64,000 nt of DNA from Candidatus Micrarchaeota archaeon (GTDB lineage Archaea; B1Sed10-29). Positions 3,288-57,401 of the stretch are shown here, in pieces. The notes under the pieces were generated by a model that saw only the letters and a list, made by a program, of their open reading frames with translations, searched no databases and had not been told where the DNA came from. Each line of letters opens with the position of its first letter. Position 1 is the first letter of the stretch. The DNA is taken from contig CAZOFO010000001.1 of assembly GCA_964579265.1 (NCBI GenBank), positions 46,115 to 110,114 of the forward strand. Reading direction: 5' to 3'. The translations under genes and the position numbers were made by a program.

Positions 3288-3405
3288 AGCCCCGTGGTGT
3301 AGCGGTCAAGTCCTATACCATAAAAATCAATAAAAAGGTAAGGGCTACGTAAAAGCATAGCAGGCCCTGGACCTGCTGACAGCGGTTCGAATCCGCTCGG
3401 GGCTA
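3288..3405 (+). tRNA. tRNA-Gln (anticodon CUG) with a ~45-nt intron at a non-canonical position (D-arm / position 26 region)
   Basis: Acceptor AGCCCCG/CGGGGCU with A1-U72 as in archaeal tRNA-Gln. T-arm AGCGG-TTCGAAT-CCGCT. Anticodon arm GCAGG-CCCTGGA-CCTGC gives anticodon CTG. The 5' exon (GTGTAGCGGTCAAG, D-arm) is separated from the anticodon arm by an AT-rich insert (TCCTATACCATAAAAATCAATAAAAAGGTAAGGGCTACGTAAAAG). Exact exon/intron junctions are not resolved. Position 33 reads C rather than the near-universal U. Confidence 0.6.
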
Positions 3406-5172: not shown

Positions 5173-5292
5173 GCTCCGATAGTCTAGTGGCCAAGGATTC
5201 GAGCCTCTCGTAAACTTTTAGAAAAAGTTTAATCAAAAAATTCTAAAGTCTAGGGATAGCTCGAGACCCGGGTTCAAATCCCGGTCGGAGCA
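5173..5292 (+). tRNA. tRNA-Glu (anticodon CUC) with canonical 47-nt intron (5211-5257) after position 37
   Basis: Acceptor GCTCCGA/TCGGAGC. Anticodon stem CGAGC/GCTCG with loop CTCTCG[intron]A gives anticodon CTC. T-arm CCGGG-TTCAAAT-CCCGG. The intron contains its own hairpin (AAACTTTT..AAAAGTTT). Confidence 0.75.
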
Positions 5293-34283: not shown

Positions 34284-34856
34284 CTATTTATTCTCTTTTT
34301 TCTGATTTGTTTTATTTCTTTGTTTTTTATTTTCTTCCGGTACTTTTTCTATTATTCCTTTTTCTTTTAATCTCTGTATTATTTCTTCGCTGGTTATTAA
34401 TCCTTCTTCTATTGCTTGTTGAAATGCTTTTTTCCCTGTTTCTGGTGTCATTTTGAATTCTTTACCTTCTTTTGAGGAAATCATTTCAGCTTTTCTTTCT
34501 ATTTCTTTTCCTAGTGGTCCTAGTTCTTTTTCAATTTCTTCTTTTATTTTTTCGATCTCTTCTTGATTTCTTTTTGCTGCTTCTACGCTTATTCCTTTTT
34601 CTTTTGCTTGTTCAAGTATTTTTCCAGTTTTTTCTTTTCCTTTTTTCTTTATTATTTCTTCGATTTTTTTGGGGTTTACTTTTCCTTCTAGTTCTTTGTT
34701 TTTAATGAGTTTTAGTGCCTCTTCTTTTCTTTTTTTATTGAGTTGTTCTTTGAACTTTTCTATGGCTTCTTTTGATTTGTCTACTTGTTCCTTTGGCACT
34801 ATCTTTCCTTTTTTCCTTTTTTTGAGTTTTTTACTTTTTTCTTGTTTATTTATCAT
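34284..34856 (-). CDS. hypothetical K/E-rich protein (190 aa)
   Basis: ORF; low-complexity charged sequence. Confidence 0.3.
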   Translation of the reverse strand: MINKQEKSKKLKKRKKGKIVPKEQVDKSKEAIEKFKEQLNKKRKEEALKLIKNKELEGKVNPKKIEEIIKKKGKEKTGKILEQAKEKGISVEAAKRNQEEIEKIKEEIEKELGPLGKEIERKAEMISSKEGKEFKMTPETGKKAFQQAIEEGLITSEEIIQRLKEKGIIEKVPEENKKQRNKTNQKKENK

Positions 34857-35355: not shown

Positions 35356-35631
35356 TCAGTCACCTCCTTCTTTTTTTCTTTTCTGCATCTGTTTTTTCTT
35401 TTGTAGGGCTCGTTTCTTTTCTTTCTTTTGGATATTTTTAAATTTTTTCATGTATTCTTTCCATTCTGGTTCTTCCACTTCTTCCTCTTCTTCAAGTTCT
35501 TTTAGTTCTTCTATTAGTTTTTTGGTGTCTTCGTGCCACTCTTTTATGTGTACTCTTTTCACTTGCATATCGTATAGTGCTGCTTCTATTATATTTTTCT
35601 TTCTCTCTATTTCTTCTTCCATTACATCCAT
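35356..35631 (-). CDS. hypothetical charged protein (91 aa)
   Basis: ORF only; 3-nt gap to hsp20. Confidence 0.3.
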   Translation of the reverse strand: MDVMEEEIERKKNIIEAALYDMQVKRVHIKEWHEDTKKLIEELKELEEEEEVEEPEWKEYMKKFKNIQKKEKKRALQKKKQMQKRKKEGGD

Positions 35632-35639
35632 TTTAATCT

Positions 35640-36959
35640 CTATTTTATCTTTTTTACCAGTTCATTTATTTCTTTCTCTATACCTGGTTTTGTTTTTTCT
35701 TCTAGTTCGTAGGTCACTCTAACTGCTGGTTTATCTATATCTAGTATTCTTTTCAAGTTTATTGGAGTCCCTATTACAGCTGCCTCTGCTGGTGAATCGT
35801 TTATTGTTTTTTCCAGTTCTTTTATCTGTTTTTCCGAGTACCCCATTGCCGGTAGGACTTTCCCAACATCGTGTTTTCTATAAGTTTGTTTTATTGATCC
35901 CATTGCATATTTTCCAGGATCTATTAATTCTGCATTGTTTCTTTTTGCTGCTATTGCTCCTGCTCCTTCTTTCAGTTCTCCGTGGGTTAGTGTTGGTCCG
36001 TCTTCCACTACAATTACTTTCTTATTTTTTATTAGGTCTGGTTTATCTACATCTATCTTTGATGCTGCTTTTATTATTCTTGCTTCAGGGTTATTTTTCT
36101 TTATATTTTGTTCTACTTGTTTCACGTTTTCTTTTTCAGCTGTTTCTACTTTGTTTATTACTGCGGTATCGCACATGTGCATGTTTATCTCTCCAGGGTA
36201 ATAATTGATCTCGTGTCCTGGCCTGTGAGGGTCAAATATAGTTATCCATTGGTCTGGTTTGTAGAATGGAGGGTCATTGTTTCCTCCGTCCCATATTATC
36301 ACTTCATTATCTTTCTCAGCTTTTTCAAGTATTTCATGGTAGTCCACTCCTGCGTATACTGTTGCTCCTTTTTCTATATGAGGTTCGTATTCTTCTCTTT
36401 CTTCTATAGTGCATTCTTCTTTATCCAGGTCTTCGTAATCTTCGAAGATCTGTGTTCTCTGCTTTTTTAGATCTCCATAAGGCATAGGGTGTCTAACTAC
36501 TGCAGCATCAATTTCTTCTTCTCTAAGTTTTTCTAATACTTTTCTAGATGTCTGGCTCTTTCCAGCTCCTGTTCTCACTGCAGTAACTGCTACAACAGGT
36601 ATATTTGATTCTAACATGGTGTTATGAGGAGCTACTAATCTAAAATCTGCTCCTGCAGAGTTTACTCTAGCTGATTTCCTCATCACATCTACATAGTTCA
36701 AGTCAGAATAGGATAGAATAACTTCGTCTATTTTCTCTTCTTTTATTATCTTCTCTAGGTTAGCTTCTTTTCTTATCGGTATTCCTTCAGGGTAGTTTTC
36801 TCCTGCTAGCTCTGCAGGGTATTCTCTGTTGGTTATGTCCGGTATCTGAGCGGCAGTGAAACACACTACCTCTACATCTTTTCTCTCTCTGTAGAGACAG
36901 TTGAAGTTGTGGAAGTCTCTTCCTGCTGCACCCATTATAAGTACTCTTTTTTTATTCAT
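35640..36959 (-). CDS. P-loop NTPase-domain protein (cyclic 2,3-diphosphoglycerate synthetase-like / DUF1611-like; tentative)
   Basis: N-terminal Rossmann-like start (VLIMGAAGRDFHNF) and P-loop-like VVAVTAVRTGAGKSQTSRKV; 439 aa. Family name is from memory and unverified. Confidence 0.35.
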   Translation of the reverse strand: MNKKRVLIMGAAGRDFHNFNCLYRERKDVEVVCFTAAQIPDITNREYPAELAGENYPEGIPIRKEANLEKIIKEEKIDEVILSYSDLNYVDVMRKSARVNSAGADFRLVAPHNTMLESNIPVVAVTAVRTGAGKSQTSRKVLEKLREEEIDAAVVRHPMPYGDLKKQRTQIFEDYEDLDKEECTIEEREEYEPHIEKGATVYAGVDYHEILEKAEKDNEVIIWDGGNNDPPFYKPDQWITIFDPHRPGHEINYYPGEINMHMCDTAVINKVETAEKENVKQVEQNIKKNNPEARIIKAASKIDVDKPDLIKNKKVIVVEDGPTLTHGELKEGAGAIAAKRNNAELIDPGKYAMGSIKQTYRKHDVGKVLPAMGYSEKQIKELEKTINDSPAEAAVIGTPINLKRILDIDKPAVRVTYELEEKTKPGIEKEINELVKKIK

Positions 36960-37010: not shown

Positions 37011-37090
37011 AATGTAAATGTTCCTACATTTATATTATTTATCCTCATTCCATAGACATTTATATACTTCAAATGTTTATCTGTAAATGT
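37011..37090 (+). promoter_or_regulatory. cluster of AAATGT / ACATTT hexamers (inverted and direct repeats) upstream of the 37100 gene
   Basis: AAATGT at 37016, 37071 and 37085; ACATTT at 37026 and 37056. They form AAATGT-tcct-ACATTT and ACATTT-n9-AAATGT palindromic pairs within 80 nt of the ATG. Confidence 0.3.
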
Positions 37091-37099
37091 GATCAAAAG

Positions 37100-37942
37100 A
37101 TGAATCGGAAGATAATACCGCTGATATTAGTAGGATTACTCGTAATTGGGATCGGCTGCATCGGTCCTTTTGCTGAAGACGAACCTGAAGACGAAGAAAG
37201 AGAAAACGGAGTACCGGAAAACGAAACGGACGAAGAAGAAATTGATATAGATGTTCTCGGAGAAACAATAACGGAAAGTATGGAGAAAGAGGAAGAAATA
37301 GGCACCTATAAATCTGAAGGTGAAGTTTATTTAGAAGTTGCTGATGAGAACATTGGAGAAGAAGATATATCAGGGGAATTTACTAGAAAAAGATCTGGAG
37401 AAAAACAAAGACTAGATATGTTATTAAAAGCTCCTGAACCAGAATCAGAAGACTTAGAATTATCTATCTTAAGCTTACCCGAAGAAACCATCCTATGTAC
37501 AAGAGAAAGACTTGGTTGGGATTGCATGGATGCAGAGATGAATCCAGATACAATGTTTATAGACTTTATGATCCCTGAAAAAGAAATGTTAAATACCCTT
37601 GTAGAACAAAGAGCAGTTAATCCCACAAGAAAAGAACAAAAAACAATCATGGAAAGAAATTGTGACTTAGTAGGGATCGAAACTGAATTAAGAGATTTAA
37701 TAGGTATAATAGGAGAAATAGAAGAAGAACCAATAGAAGACGTGGATCTACAATTAGAAGTAGAACAATGCTACGATGAAGGAACAGGGGTAGCTCTAGA
37801 AACAATGATGGATTTATATATAGAAGAAGAACTTGGAAGTGTCTCGGTTTACCTTGAAAAAGAAACTGAAGAACTGGAAACAGGTCTAGAGATACCTGAA
37901 GAAGAATTCGAACCACCAGCGGAACCTGAAAATTCTTATTAA
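37100..37942 (+). CDS. secreted acidic Cys-containing protein, lipobox-like leader; paralogue of the 45237-46118 protein
   Basis: Leader MNRKIIPLILVGLLVIGIGCIGPFAEDEPEDE. C-terminal half aligns with the 45237 protein (GEKQRLD/GEKQRTD; EQCYDEGTGVALE / NQCYDKETGVPLL; IPEEEFEPPAEPE / IPEEIFELPADP). Confidence 0.5.
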   Translation: MNRKIIPLILVGLLVIGIGCIGPFAEDEPEDEERENGVPENETDEEEIDIDVLGETITESMEKEEEIGTYKSEGEVYLEVADENIGEEDISGEFTRKRSGEKQRLDMLLKAPEPESEDLELSILSLPEETILCTRERLGWDCMDAEMNPDTMFIDFMIPEKEMLNTLVEQRAVNPTRKEQKTIMERNCDLVGIETELRDLIGIIGEIEEEPIEDVDLQLEVEQCYDEGTGVALETMMDLYIEEELGSVSVYLEKETEELETGLEIPEEEFEPPAEPENSY

Positions 37943-38036: not shown

Positions 38037-39011
38037 TCATCTTCCTCCTAGAAGTTCATCGTATTTTCTTCTTGCTTCTTCCACAGATTCAACACCTTTA
38101 ACTATTGCTTTGCCGCTGCTATAGACACTTATCCTTACATTATCTTTATTTAGAATAGCTATTTTATCTCCGTATGTTTCTACTTCTGGATTTATTTCCT
38201 TTACTTTTTCAGGTTCCGTTATCCTAGGGTATATTTGAACGGAATCTTCACTACAAAGAGTTCTTGCTTCTTTTATCCTACTTAGTTCCTTGTATTTCCC
38301 GTTACAGGTGCTGCAGTCTTTTTTATTTTTAGTTTTTAGCTTATCAAAGCTCATTTTTTCTAAATTAATATTTAGTAGATTCTTCATTGGTCTTCCTTTA
38401 ACTATTTTCTCAATCTGCTTTACCTGTAGTGCTGAAATTATCTCAGCTATCCCTGGAGAAACTCCTAGTTGATCACATGTGTCTTCACTTGCTGGTTCTT
38501 CCCCTAGAACACATCTTAGACAAGGACCACCTTTTTCTACTGTCATTGTCATTCCTTTAGCTCCTCCTATCATTCCGATTATTAGAGGAACATTTTCTTT
38601 TACAGAGTAGTCATTTAGGAGAAGTCGAGTTCTAAGATTATCTGTGGAATCTATGATTACATCAGTATTCTTTACCTCTCTTTCAATATTATTTGAATTT
38701 AGATCTATTGGAGAACAGCTTATATCTTGGTTTTTATCTTTTGATATTTTCTCTATTTTTTCTTTCATTATTTCAGCTTTCAGGTTTCCTACTTCGTCTT
38801 TTGAATAGTTCTGATTATCTAAATTTCGAGACTCTAAGAAGTCTCTATCTATCAAGTTTAAATCACAACCTATCTTACCCAGTGTTTCAGAAGTTTTGGA
38901 TCCTAAGGTACCTAAACCTATTACTGTGCAATGTAGATCTCTTAGTTTATCGTAATCAGAATCTAGATAATTCTCTATCCTCGTTTTTTCACGGTTTTTT
39001 TCTCTCCGCAT
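38037..39011 (-). CDS. E1-like ThiF/MoeB/UbaA-family adenylyltransferase with ~80-aa C-terminal extension
   Basis: Nucleotide-binding motif VIGLGTLGSKTSETL and DRDFLESRNLDNQ; CxxC pairs (CLRC, CSTC). The C-terminal extension (beta-rich, ISVYSSGKAIVKG) ends in ...LLGGR. Confidence 0.65.
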   Translation of the reverse strand: MRREKNREKTRIENYLDSDYDKLRDLHCTVIGLGTLGSKTSETLGKIGCDLNLIDRDFLESRNLDNQNYSKDEVGNLKAEIMKEKIEKISKDKNQDISCSPIDLNSNNIEREVKNTDVIIDSTDNLRTRLLLNDYSVKENVPLIIGMIGGAKGMTMTVEKGGPCLRCVLGEEPASEDTCDQLGVSPGIAEIISALQVKQIEKIVKGRPMKNLLNINLEKMSFDKLKTKNKKDCSTCNGKYKELSRIKEARTLCSEDSVQIYPRITEPEKVKEINPEVETYGDKIAILNKDNVRISVYSSGKAIVKGVESVEEARRKYDELLGGR

Positions 39012-39125
39012 TTAAATCATTTCTTAGTTTTTTTCCAGAAAATTCATTAAATACTTCTTGTATACCAACCTTAAATAAGGAAAGATTCTTTATATATTAA
39101 GGGATGAAATAAGTTTTTTGATAAG

Positions 39126-39338
39126 GTGTTTGAAATGAAGATTAAGTTCAAGGGTAAAGAGGAAAAAGAATTAAAGGAAATCGAAACAGAGGCTCGAAAT
39201 ATTAAGGAATTATTAGAAAGGAAGGATATTAATCCTGTTACTCACGTAGTTTCCTTGAACGGGGAGATAGTTACTGAAGATGAAGAATTAAGCGAGGGAG
39301 ATGAAGTAAAGATCCAAAAAGTGGTTAGTGGAGGATAA
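39126..39338 (+). CDS. ThiS/MoaD/SAMP-like small ubiquitin-fold protein ending in Gly-Gly
   Basis: 70-aa ORF with C-terminal ...VKIQKVVSGG-stop, the beta-grasp sulfur-carrier/SAMP hallmark. Divergently adjacent to the E1-like gene. Confidence 0.55.
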   Translation: MFEMKIKFKGKEEKELKEIETEARNIKELLERKDINPVTHVVSLNGEIVTEDEELSEGDEVKIQKVVSGG

Positions 39339-39353
39339 TAAAAGGAGATAAAG

Positions 39354-41546
39354 ATGTCAGAGCAGGAAAGAGGATCAAGGAAGTTCGGAGCATTTACAGG
39401 AGTATTCATCCCTACCTTTCTGAGTATAGTGGGAGTTATACTGTTTTTAAGATTGGGTTTTGTAGTGGGTGGCGCAGGTTTCTGGGGAGCTATAGCTATA
39501 ATAATATTAGCGGTTTCAGTAACAATCGCAACAGGTCTTTCTCTAAGTTCAATAGCCAGTAATATAAGGATAGGTGCTGGTGGAGCTTACTCTATAATAA
39601 ATAAGACTCTCGGACTGGAGATAGGTGGGAGTATAGGCATACCTCTTTATTTGGCTCAGGCATTCTCAGTGATTCTATATATATTCGGATTCGCCGAAGC
39701 ATGGGGATACATTTTTCCCCAGCACAGTGTATTGTTAGTTTCTCTAGCTGCATTCTTGATTTTGTTTTTACTAACTTATTTGAGCACTAGCGCAGCTGTA
39801 AAAGTTCAAGTAGGAGTATTCATACTTATTTGTCTCGCTCTTATAGTTGTTTTTGCAGGAGGATTTCAAGCAGAACTAACACCTTCAGTAGGAACAGTTG
39901 AAGGTGCTCCTGGTTTCTGGATTCTCTTTGCTATATTCTTCCCTGCAGTAACAGGGTTGATGTCTGGTATAGGTATGTCAGGAGAACTTACAGATCCAAA
40001 ATCCCAAATACCTAAAGGAGTTATGTATGGTCTAGGAGTGACTGCAGTTATATATATAGCCACTGCTCTTTTACTATCTTTATCAGCTACTAGAGCTGAA
40101 TTACTCACTGAAACATTGATCCTGGCTGAAATAGCTCTAATATCTGAATTTGTTATTATAGGTATACTCGCTGCAACCTTTTCAAGCGCTCTTACAATGA
40201 TGATAGCTGCTCCAAGAGTACTTGAAGCTCTTGGAGAAAATTCTATAATCCCAAAGAGCAACTACTTCAAACAGATGTCTCCTGAAGGAGAACCTAGAAA
40301 CGCAGTAGTATTCACAGGTCTAATACTAATACCTATTATCTTAATAGGAAGTTTAGATTCGATTGCACAGGTCCTAACGATGCTTTTCTTAATAACATAT
40401 GCTATGATAAATATATCTGTATTCTTAGAACAACAACTAGGATTAAGAAGCTTTAGACCAACCTTCAAGGTTTCAAAATACATCCCATTATACGGTGCAC
40501 TTGTATCACTCATATTGATGTTCCTTGTAAATCCATACGCCAGCATAATAGCAATAATAATTATAATTTCAGTTTACATCTGGTTAGCGAAAAAAACTTT
40601 AGATCAAGAAAGCGGAGATGTAAGATCAGGATTATTCAGAGCAATATCCCAATGGTCAGCAGAAAAAACACGTTCACTACCTGAATCATCAGCACATATA
40701 TGGAAACCTAACATGATAGTACCCGTACAAAGCACTAAAACACTACGAGGGAACTTCCCACTAATAAAATCAATAGCCTACCCAAACGGAAGCATGACCG
40801 TACTAGGATTCAAACCCAAAGAAATCTCCAAGGAAAAAGACACACCAGAAGAAAACCTAACCGAAGAAGAAAGAAAGAAAGAACTCGAAATGCTACCTGA
40901 ACTAGTGGATAAATTTTCCGACGAAGAAATATTCACCTCCTACTCAACAGTAAACTTCGAAAACTACATAAATTCCCTTACAGTATCAATAGAAGCAATA
41001 GACAGCCAGGTATTCTCACCCAATATGCTATTCCTACCCTATAACCCAAACGAACTTCCTCCAAAAGACCTAAGACAAATAATAAAATCATCCAAAGAAC
41101 AAAGATGCGGTGTAGTACTATTCGACAAAGACGATGAAATAGGCCTGGGAACCGAAGAAGATATCCACGTATGGATAGATCCAAGATCACTTGAAGAAGA
41201 TTTATTCGAACAGAGATACTACGATTTATCCCTCCTAATAGCTTACAGTATAAAAAAGAACTGGGATGGAAAAATAAACATATGGATGTGCGTAGAAGAA
41301 GAAAAAGAAAAGAAAGCAAAGAGATACCTCTCAAAATTAATATACGAAGCTAGATTACCCTATTCAACTGAAATAAATGTAGTTACAGATGAATTCCAAA
41401 AAACCTTTGAAGAAGCACCCGAAGGAGACATACACATACTTCCATTCGAAGAAAAAGATATAGAAGGAGTATCAGAGACAGCAGAAACCGAAAGAAGATC
41501 CATACTATTCGTGCTGGATTCAACAAGAGAAAGCATACTAGCATAA
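39354..41546 (+). CDS. cation-chloride cotransporter (SLC12/CCC-family, APC superfamily) homologue with cytoplasmic C-terminal domain
   Basis: N-terminus KFGAFTGVFIPTFLSIVGVILFLRLGFVVGGAG matches the SLC12 TM1 signature (KFGW..GV..P..LNI.GV.LFLRL.W.VG.AG). 12 TM helices; ~280-aa hydrophilic C-terminal domain. Confidence 0.6.
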   Translation: MSEQERGSRKFGAFTGVFIPTFLSIVGVILFLRLGFVVGGAGFWGAIAIIILAVSVTIATGLSLSSIASNIRIGAGGAYSIINKTLGLEIGGSIGIPLYLAQAFSVILYIFGFAEAWGYIFPQHSVLLVSLAAFLILFLLTYLSTSAAVKVQVGVFILICLALIVVFAGGFQAELTPSVGTVEGAPGFWILFAIFFPAVTGLMSGIGMSGELTDPKSQIPKGVMYGLGVTAVIYIATALLLSLSATRAELLTETLILAEIALISEFVIIGILAATFSSALTMMIAAPRVLEALGENSIIPKSNYFKQMSPEGEPRNAVVFTGLILIPIILIGSLDSIAQVLTMLFLITYAMINISVFLEQQLGLRSFRPTFKVSKYIPLYGALVSLILMFLVNPYASIIAIIIIISVYIWLAKKTLDQESGDVRSGLFRAISQWSAEKTRSLPESSAHIWKPNMIVPVQSTKTLRGNFPLIKSIAYPNGSMTVLGFKPKEISKEKDTPEENLTEEERKKELEMLPELVDKFSDEEIFTSYSTVNFENYINSLTVSIEAIDSQVFSPNMLFLPYNPNELPPKDLRQIIKSSKEQRCGVVLFDKDDEIGLGTEEDIHVWIDPRSLEEDLFEQRYYDLSLLIAYSIKKNWDGKINIWMCVEEEKEKKAKRYLSKLIYEARLPYSTEINVVTDEFQKTFEEAPEGDIHILPFEEKDIEGVSETAETERRSILFVLDSTRESILA

Positions 41547-56588: not shown

Positions 56589-57401
56589 TTAATCAAACAC
56601 TTTTTTCTTTATTTTATCAATTTTCTCTTCATTCAGACCTATTAGAGGAGTGTAAATTGGCTTCACATGTTTTTCATGATCTTCTATGGCATTTTCTATA
56701 TTTTTTGTTCCTGTTACTGTTCCTTGTGGCTCGGTTGGTTTTTTCTCAGTTAGATTCCATTTTTCAAGAGTTTTATCCAGTTTTTTATTCTTTTTTTCTT
56801 TGACTGGTTCTATCATGCATCCTCTTTTCATCATCATCCAGGCGGCTAAGAGGTCTTCTTCGGTTTCTAACTTTGATTTTAATGTTCCGGCTACCCCTAG
56901 CGGTATGCCTCCTGGTCCTTTTATTTTTTCGGTGAAAAGATGTGATTTCTCTCCGTATACTTCTATATAGAGGATATGATCGGGGTTATCCAGGTCTACT
57001 TTTAGTCCTGTTTCTTTCTCCACGGTTCTTCCTATTTCTTCTTCTAGATCTTTGCTTGTGAAATCATGGTCCTTTGTTATTCTCTGCGCTCTGATAGCGA
57101 AAGTTCCTTTTTTCCAGTTTTTTACTTTTTCTTTTGCTTTTTCTCTTATTTTCTCCTTATTTGTCTCGGTTTCAACTGCTTTTGAGATAGATACTACTCC
57201 GAATATCTTTTTCAGAGTATTTAGAGCTTTTTCTCCCTGTTTTTCAGGGTAAATGTATAGTCTCAGTCTTTTTTCTTTTACTTCAGCGTTGATTCCATTT
57301 TTCTTTAGAGCTGTCCTCATGTTGTTTCCTAACTGGGATAGGAATCTTTTTTTCACTGGTTTTGACTTGAGGAATATTTCCCCGAATCTAGCTATTATCA
57401 T
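56589..57401 (-). CDS. ThiI-like THUMP-domain protein lacking the PP-loop ATP pyrophosphatase motif
   Basis: N-terminus MIIARFGEIFLKSKPVKKRF and THUMP region (NPDHILYIEVYGEKSHLFTEKIKGPGGIPLG) match ThiI. Where ThiI has SGGxDSPVAAxLMMKRG this protein has KLETEEDLLAAWMMMKRG. The protein ends after ~70 more residues (IYTPLIGLNEEKI). Confidence 0.55.
   Translation of the reverse strand: MIIARFGEIFLKSKPVKKRFLSQLGNNMRTALKKNGINAEVKEKRLRLYIYPEKQGEKALNTLKKIFGVVSISKAVETETNKEKIREKAKEKVKNWKKGTFAIRAQRITKDHDFTSKDLEEEIGRTVEKETGLKVDLDNPDHILYIEVYGEKSHLFTEKIKGPGGIPLGVAGTLKSKLETEEDLLAAWMMMKRGCMIEPVKEKKNKKLDKTLEKWNLTEKKPTEPQGTVTGTKNIENAIEDHEKHVKPIYTPLIGLNEEKIDKIKKKVFD

Follow-up and report, generated by a model that had tools for sequence, protein, structure and literature searches.

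Among the described systems closest to the gene pair reported here are UbaA-SAMP2 of Haloferax volcanii and TK2117-Ubl of Thermococcus kodakarensis, which like it combine a MoeB/ThiF-type E1 with a ThiS-family ubiquitin-fold protein (Ubl) that has about 66 aa and a Gly-Gly end. Both sulfur carriage and protein conjugation have been documented for systems of this kind (PMC11323500, PMC2948915). For archaeal ThiS-family Ubls, tRNA modification was predicted to be the chief role (PMC2948915); in T. kodakarensis tRNA s2U depends mainly on the ThiS-family Ubl TK1093 as its carrier, and each of the three Ubls of this species also forms conjugates (PMC11323500). A further comparison is offered by TtuC-TtuB of Thermus thermophilus, a sulfur relay for tRNA s2T54, in which the E1 activates a ThiS-like carrier.

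Some E1s of this type extend beyond the adenylation domain. Fusion of a TBP-like domain to an E1 has already been described (PMC2948915, PMC3597702), and Brindefalk et al. 2013 placed a 'ThiF-MoeZ-MoeB group' within the TBP-domain superfamily, stating that there was no experimental information on the role of the domain (PMC3597702). E1s of the PRK12475 type (NCBIfam NF009123) are known from thiazole and Moco operons of Bacillaceae, and from many Planctomycetota, Acidobacteriota and archaea. Here we analyse an E1-Ubl pair carried by a stretch of archaeal DNA of 64,000 nt, called the window below.

The gene pair and its host

The window is archaeal: it encodes an archaeal SRP RNA along with a histone, MCM and FtsZ. 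The closest genomes that carry the E1 belong to 'Candidatus Iainarchaeum archaeon T1Sed10_39R1', at 67% identity, and to an unclassified archaeon MAG, at 62%. From these sequences the host is judged to be a DPANN archaeon, Iainarchaeota-like. One related contig, labelled SL_8KL_010_SED, comes from a JGI sediment metagenome. The locus comprises the following features.

38037..39011, reverse strand: E1-like adenylyltransferase gene, 324 aa, adenylation domain plus C-terminal TBP-like domain (ORF and Pfam)
38046..38267, reverse strand: single TBP-like domain of the E1, residues 249-322, with near-invariant Cys253, Gln259, Gly300, Ala313, Tyr317 and Gly322
38304..38975, reverse strand: adenylation (Rossmann) domain of the E1 with zinc site, residues 13-236 (alignments to E. 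coli MoeB and ThiF)
39012..39134, no strand: AT-rich divergent spacer with TATA-like boxes in both directions, putative promoters (sequence)
39135..39338, forward strand: ThiS-family, SAMP2-like ubiquitin-fold (Ubl) gene, 67 aa, VVSGG end (Pfam ThiS)

The original prediction had described an E1-like ORF divergent to an ORF ending in -GG. Both lie at the coordinates it gave, and neither is a chance ORF. For the Ubl gene, the predicted position and the VVSGG-stop stand, but the length of 70 aa does not: it belongs to an alternative GTG start at 39126 (ORF 39126-39338, forward strand), whereas the ATG at 39135, which yields 67 aa, is the start chosen by gene callers in three independent assemblies and the one shared with four orthologues.

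The divergent pair recurs in four related loci (L007, L008, L010 and L011), whose E1s are 60-71% identical to that of the window, and over these five units the spacer measures 108-144 bp. On the far side of the E1, the neighbouring gene varies among the five loci. Aligned with the four orthologous spacers, the spacer of the window shows a column identity of 54%, and no promoter or operator motif stands out as strongly conserved. A cation-chloride cotransporter gene begins 16-100 nt after the Ubl gene in the window and in L007, L008 and L011; since these genomes are closely related, the adjacency shows synteny and not a functional link.

The adenylation domain and its ubiquitin-fold partner

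The E1 matches Pfam ThiF (PF00899) over residues 13-234 with an E-value of 1.2e-39, above the gathering threshold. All motifs cited when it was first assigned to the ThiF/MoeB/UbaA type are present, namely GLGTLGS (residues 32-38), RNLDNQ (62-67), CLRC (164-167) and CSTC (233-236), and the chain ends in LLGGR. Nucleotide-binding and catalytic residues are found at G32xG34xxG37, D55-R56-D57, K78 and D124, the zinc cysteines are C164/C167/C233/C236, and C179, the active-site-loop cysteine, aligns with C187 of MoeB and C184 of ThiF. Column counts place all five cysteines, K78 and D124 in 83/83 subfamily members. With its intact nucleotide-binding loop, Mg-binding Asp, zinc site and C179, the 324-aa protein is identified as a MoeB/ThiF-type adenylyltransferase.

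The arginine of the NLxRQ motif, found in 74/83 subfamily members and otherwise conserved, has been lost in several archaeal lineages. In the window E1 this position is Asn66; it is Asn or Ser throughout the Iainarchaeota clade, His in Thermoplasmata members and Cys in an Aenigmatarchaeota member. We take the arginine to be the counterpart of Arg73 of MoeB, a phosphate ligand in the MoeB-MoaD-ATP structure. Among the 83 members compared, position 62 is Arg or Lys in the Iainarchaeota clade only, and Arg62 lies one helical turn before position 66, on a predicted helix spanning residues 61-67. It is thus possible that the arginine has been relocated to Arg62 in this clade. The replacement by Asn66 could mean an altered or reduced adenylation, unless Arg62 compensates.

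Scored against the curated NCBIfam models, the E1 reaches 155.4 bits with NF009123 (cutoff 510) and 93.2 bits with the UbaA equivalog NF047750 (cutoff 450); with the MoeB/ThiF equivalogs it reaches 110 bits for NF006444 (cutoff 449), 63 bits for TIGR02355 (cutoff 376.55) and 124.4 bits for TIGR02356 (cutoff 275.25). As each of these values falls under the cutoff, no function can be transferred at the equivalog level. Ten other representatives of the NF009123 architecture also remain under 510, at 250-403 bits, compared with 155 bits for the window E1.

Weak matches of the E1 were also obtained with the PADLOC E1-E2 (Cap2) models and with NCBIfam 6A-MBL cap2_3, as would befit an anti-phage Ubl-conjugation system, Cap2-like as in CBASS or Bil-like. 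These matches are nevertheless limited to the shared Rossmann part (residues 13-150) and do not exceed 56 bits, and the neighbours of the pair are housekeeping and transport genes conserved in synteny. No cyclase is encoded nearby, and because the E2 domain, JAB protease and effector genes are missing there too, a role in defence is effectively refuted.

The Ubl matches Pfam ThiS (PF02597) with an E-value of 5.9e-10 and 40 bits, above the cutoff of 22.5, and narrowly misses Pfam SAMP2 (PF21965; 26.5 bits, cutoff 27). It stays below the cutoffs of NCBIfam SAMP2 (NF041919; 21.7 bits, cutoff 70) and of the NCBIfam ThiS equivalog, and scores only 17.9-22.6 bits with MoaD models, far under their cutoffs of 49.5-66. 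Its nearest solved structure is SAMP2 of P. furiosus (5lda_B, E 1.5e-6), which aligns over the full length and likewise ends in VVSGG; further solved relatives are PF1061 (E 2.2e-6), MTH1743 (1ryj) and Thermus TtuB (5ztb, E 3.3e-4), compared with an E-value of only 0.062 for a MoaD structure. These comparisons class the Ubl as a ThiS-family beta-grasp protein of the SAMP2/PF1061/TtuB type, rather than of the MoaD type, with a free C-terminal Gly-Gly, and bear out the beta-grasp -GG partner originally proposed. The VVSGG end is present in all five orthologues. A homologue search with the Ubl returned only three proteins, too few for a phylogeny.

The TBP-like domain of the E1

About 85 residues of the E1 follow the second CxxC. 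In an AlphaFold2 model they are predicted to form six short strands and two helices, in agreement with the beta-rich extension of ~80 aa noted beforehand. The single E1 sequence gives a weak Pfam TBP match (residues 286-318, E 0.007), and a profile built from 14 extensions matches the M. jannaschii TBP (E 8e-5) together with dozens of other TBPs in the PDB. The extension has a TBP-like fold as well as the sequence signal of the TBP-domain superfamily. Two 'Tako8' matches ranked above the TBPs; they were discounted, being designed repeat proteins in which sub-threshold stretches add up to the score.

Structure prediction of the extension had been proposed as a way to decide between a beta-grasp and a rhodanese fold, and the prediction returned neither, the domain being TBP-like. 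Compared with the Ubl by hhalign, the extension shows no similarity to it (probability 0.04%). No rhodanese match was found either, and the MoeZ model aligns with residues 22-234 only. The window E1 thus differs from Uba4, MOCS3 and MoeZ, whose extra C-terminal domain is a rhodanese. It also differs from UbaA, the UbaA equivalog model ending at about residue 239 of the window E1 and so excluding the TBP-like domain. NF009123 (PRK12475, 'MoeB/ThiF family adenylyltransferase'), on the other hand, covers residues 12-322 of the E1 with positions 11-338 of its 338, and because it aligns end to end, this curated model already includes the extension. The E1 shows the architecture of the model, an adenylation domain followed by a C-terminal TBP-like domain with a conserved Cys. 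We conclude that the extension is a single TBP-like domain, the mark of the PRK12475-type subfamily. The PDB holds no structure covering the TBP-like domain of an E1.

The fused domain had been considered unusual, and this view is not supported. Among 1.84 billion representative proteins searched, it occurs in at least 1,535 representative clusters (50% identity) at E<=1e-3, 643 of them at E<=1e-10; it is present in all 80 related genome loci, is part of NF009123 and appears in the earlier literature. The 80 loci span Bacillaceae, Planctomycetota, Acidobacteriota, Methanobacteriaceae, Thermoplasmata and Aenigmatarchaeota. Only four of the 150 best matches listed have the domain more than ~20 residues away from the C-terminus. 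Complete proteins measure 333-364 aa, and each of ten full-length representatives aligns with NF009123 from one end to the other. The group of Brindefalk et al., which has the same E1 plus TBP-like architecture as the window E1, comprised three members and no function (PMC3597702), to which the present data add clusters in the number given above and operon contexts.

Over 152 representatives, conserved positions of the domain are Cys253 (147/148), Gln259 (144/152), Ala313 (148/148) and Gly322 (142/146). The window E1 carries the TBP signature of PRK12475-type E1s, Cys253...Gln259...Gly300-x-Ala302...Ala313...Tyr317...Gly322, and shares with them the end-to-end architecture, GxGxxG, DRD, Lys78, Asp124, the zinc cysteines and Cys179. 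It departs from them in the Asn of NLxRQ, in Arg62, in a C-S-E in place of the near-invariant C-G-R, in a deletion of five residues between residues 279 and 280, and in its GGR tail. The C-S-E and the deletion characterise the divergent Iainarchaeota domain, in which the core signature is kept.

Proteins of the subfamily typically end one residue after the conserved Gly (IGA, IGS, VGS), following the pattern (I/V)-G-x-stop with a variable last residue, and GG forms the final residues in only 9/152 representatives. A reading of LLGGR as a ubiquitin-like diglycine tail was rejected for the family: only its first Gly is conserved, and most relatives end in (I/V)-G-x. With so few relatives ending in GG, the LLGGR ending is interpreted as a clade-specific variant.

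Makarova and Koonin speculated on a ubiquitin-like role for TBP-fold proteins ending in GG, and noted both such ends and E1 fusions (PMC2948915). Carried over to the window, the TBP-like domain would be a cis-acting ubiquitin-like analogue, its Gly-rich tail being processed and adenylated by the fused E1. The high conservation of Gly322, with a stop almost always one residue on, would suit this idea. The scarcity of GG ends and the Arg that follows GG here do not, and genuine ThiS/MoaD carriers are encoded beside the subfamily in Bacillaceae, Isosphaeraceae and the window clade. Moreover, judging by the TBP sequence pattern, the conserved Gly may do no more than cap the final helix of the fold. 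We hold a cis-acting tail to be highly improbable.

The gene contexts of the TBP-domain E1s are diverse. According to Pfam, the gene order is DAO(ThiO)-ThiS-ThiG-E1 in a Bacillus locus (L012), and MoaE-MoaD-E1 (L060) and MobA-MoaE-MoaD-E1 (L069) in Peribacillus; the carriers next to the E1 in Bacillaceae are a 67-aa ThiS ending in HFVGGG and a 77-aa MoaD ending in IPPVSGG. An Isosphaeraceae locus (L019) has the order Ubl-E1-cysteine desulfurase, and in three Thermoplasmata genomes the E1 directly adjoins a ThiI PP-loop protein of 207-223 aa without a THUMP domain. The neighbours are heterogeneous in 52 non-Bacillaceae bacterial loci, and a class-V aminotransferase (cysteine-desulfurase family) occurs in only 4/52 of them, so that there is no strong general linkage. 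Thiazole, Moco, Ubl, ThiI and heterogeneous contexts together mean that the domain is no marker of one pathway; it is a general property of a lineage of E1s that activate sulfur carriers. Unlike the operons in which PRK12475-type E1s accompany ThiS or MoaD, the window pairs its E1 with a SAMP2-like Ubl that is divergently encoded.

Candidate pathways and significance

Pfam annotation of the window with ~8 kb upstream and 3.4 kb downstream of it (~75 kb) revealed no MoaE, ThiG, MoaA/C or MoeA, no ATP_bind_3/NcsA, TtuA-type or ThiI PP-loop gene, and no JAMM/MPN, rhodanese or clear cysteine desulfurase gene. The earlier remark that no MoaE, ThiG, NcsA or JAMM gene is adjacent hence holds for this whole region, and the original prediction was right to commit the pair to no one pathway. 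The pair differs from archaeal UbaA-SAMP2 in that neither an NcsA nor a JAMM partner was found near it in these ~75 kb. Its Ubl resembles TtuB, but unlike Thermus TtuC-TtuB it has no TtuA-type PP-loop gene in the region, and its host is not known as a thermophile.

The pair could be a standard cofactor carrier with its enzyme, either a MoaD/MoeB pair serving in molybdopterin or tungstopterin synthesis, or a ThiS/ThiF pair serving in that of the thiazole of thiamine. MoeB/ThiF models are the best NCBIfam matches of the E1, and the Bacillaceae members of the subfamily occupy the ThiF/MoeB positions of thiS-thiG and moaE-moaD operons. In addition, a gene for a TPP-dependent 2-oxoacid:ferredoxin oxidoreductase lies ~8 kb upstream of the window, and the organism therefore uses TPP. 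Against such a role stand the absence of MoaE, MoaA/C, MoeA and ThiG from the ~75 kb and a Ubl that is far under the MoaD cutoffs and closer to SAMP2/TtuB. DPANN genomes usually lack cofactor biosynthesis, which weighs in the same direction. Thiamine in archaea, moreover, is apparently made by a pathway without ThiS/ThiG (PMC2948915), and we consider cofactor synthesis an improbable function of the pair.

A function mainly in protein modification, of the sampylation type, would involve a thioester on C179 and isopeptide bonds to lysines; sulfur transfer would then be a secondary activity or not occur at all. None of the five orthologues departs from the free GG terminus, the active-site-loop Cys179 is invariant as well, and the structure of the nearest solved relative of the Ubl, P. 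furiosus SAMP2, comes from a crystal that also contained a JAMM protease (5lda). Conjugates are also known for archaeal Ubls of both families (PMC11323500, PMC2948915). This function is weakened by the lack of a JAMM/MPN gene in the ~75 kb, and by the presence of E1s of like architecture in plain thiS-thiG and moaE-moaD operons of Bacillaceae. Furthermore, sulfur carriage accompanies conjugation in every characterised archaeal case, the two roles not being mutually exclusive. A predominantly modifying role is accordingly rather unlikely in our view.

We favour, with some confidence, a cognate pair made of a ubiquitin-fold sulfur carrier and its activating E1, serving probably in tRNA thiolation and possibly in protein conjugation. 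The identity of the parts, E1 and Ubl, is near certain, and the assignment to a pathway is moderately supported. Against tRNA thiolation speaks the downstream acceptor, an NcsA/TtuA-type PP-loop gene, which was not found in the ~75 kb.

The steps by which a sulfur carrier and its E1 would work can be drawn from the established chemistry of E1, ThiS, MoaD and Urm1. By analogy, an E1 dimer would bind the Ubl and adenylate its Gly67 with ATP, and the acyl-adenylate would then be converted to a C-terminal Ubl thiocarboxylate with sulfur from a persulfide or sulfide. The thiocarboxylate would give its sulfur to a downstream enzyme, most likely an NcsA/TtuA-type tRNA 2-thiouridine synthetase encoded elsewhere. 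The activated Ubl may also be joined to protein lysines, as in Haloferax and Thermococcus. In this scheme the TBP-like domain would act in docking or in sulfur relay.

The relay idea starts from the near-invariant Cys253 and from the fixed hydrophobic-Gly-x-COOH tail. A bolder proposal, which we advance tentatively and with a low expectation, is that the TBP-like domain is a sulfur-relay or docking module, the counterpart of the rhodanese of MoeZ, Uba4 and MOCS3, acting together with a relocated Arg62. If true, the pair would be a minimal machine, complete in itself, with which an archaeon of reduced DPANN genome could both thiocarboxylate and conjugate its Ubl, and the recurrent adjacency to THUMP-less ThiI in Thermoplasmata would suggest that the E1 system feeds tRNA thiolation directly.

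The pair is a divergent DPANN member of a known E1 subfamily, together with a known kind of Ubl. By itself this finding is of little weight: it adds a DPANN member and sets right the view of the fused domain as something unusual. Two side points may interest those who study sulfur trafficking, namely the TBP-like E1 domain, described in 2010-2013, with its near-invariant Cys and fixed C-terminal Gly, and the loss of the NLxRQ arginine from several archaeal lineages. The minimal E1-Ubl pair of a reduced-genome archaeon would be a convenient system in which the role of this domain could be studied.

Variation of the E1 motif and longer fusions

The position of the conserved NLxRQ arginine of the ThiF/MoeB-type E1, an enzyme with a C-terminal TBP-like domain, lies in the following region of the window:

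38814-38828, NLxRQ-motif region of the E1 (residues 62-66)

By column count, arginine occupies this position in 74 of the 83 subfamily members, and variation is listed for loci L007, L008, L010, L011, L018, L048 and L061. In the E1s of the Iainarchaeota clade it is replaced by Asn or Ser, and an Arg or Lys is found four residues upstream. The position is a histidine in the Thermoplasmata E1s and a cysteine in one Aenigmatarchaeota E1.

Longer fusions containing the E1 and the TBP-like domain are rare: the 834-aa protein P0082 joins them to 3-dehydroquinate dehydratase and shikimate dehydrogenase, while in P0093 (520 aa) a region of about 180 residues without assignment precedes the E1.

Genes surrounding the E1/Ubl pair

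The genes close to the pair formed by the E1 and the divergent ThiS-family ubiquitin-fold protein (Ubl) are:

34284-34856, minus strand, Lys/Glu-rich protein
35356-35631, minus strand, Lys/Glu-rich protein
35640-36959, minus strand, conserved 439-aa protein
37073-37942, plus strand, very acidic (Glu/Asp-rich) 289-aa protein
39354-41546, plus strand, prokaryotic cation-chloride cotransporter (CCC), 730 aa
41606-42916, plus strand, Lys/Glu-rich protein, 436 aa

The cotransporter possesses both CCC C-terminal domains, and the Ubl gene ends 16 nt before the cotransporter gene begins, an order of genes common to the related loci L007, L008 and L011. The three Lys/Glu-rich proteins have no Pfam family and are probably coiled-coil; PADLOC matches of the 436-aa protein are weak and SMC/JetC-like only, and the position of its gene is retained in L007 and L008. 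The acidic protein, also without Pfam family, has a hydrophobic N-terminal segment with a cysteine (LLVIGIGCIG) and may be secreted or lipid-anchored. For the 439-aa protein, the sole Pfam match is a marginal one of CobW/HypB nucleotide-binding type (21.3 bits, cutoff 20.7), with no NCBIfam assignment.

tRNA genes and ThiI-like proteins

Three further features of the window are:

3288-3405, plus strand, tRNA match (Rfam)
5173-5292, plus strand, tRNA match (Rfam)
56589-57401, minus strand, 270-aa protein with ThiI ferredoxin-like and THUMP domains

Both tRNA matches, 118-120 nt long and without an ARAGORN call, are probably archaeal tRNA genes with introns. The 270-aa protein lacks the PP-loop domain; it resembles a ThiI-like enzyme reduced to its RNA-binding half, or a THUMP protein of another kind.

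Three genomes of Thermoplasmata have, directly adjoining the TBP-domain E1, a ThiI PP-loop protein (PF02568) of 207-223 aa, devoid of THUMP and ferredoxin-like domains:

L018 3662-5302, E1 and ThiI PP-loop protein
L048 4950-6571, E1 and ThiI PP-loop protein
L084 4932-6612, E1 and ThiI PP-loop protein
L084 6531-6896, plus strand, 121-aa ORF, weak TBP-domain profile match (E 9e-4)

The ORF directly follows the L084 ThiI-like gene, overlapping its end; its predicted product includes the internal stretch LTLYESGKILVKTDDETEARRAIDEVYGALG and may be a stand-alone single TBP-domain protein beside the E1. The E1/ThiI adjacency in these three genomes suggests that a linkage between E1 and thiolase is conserved.
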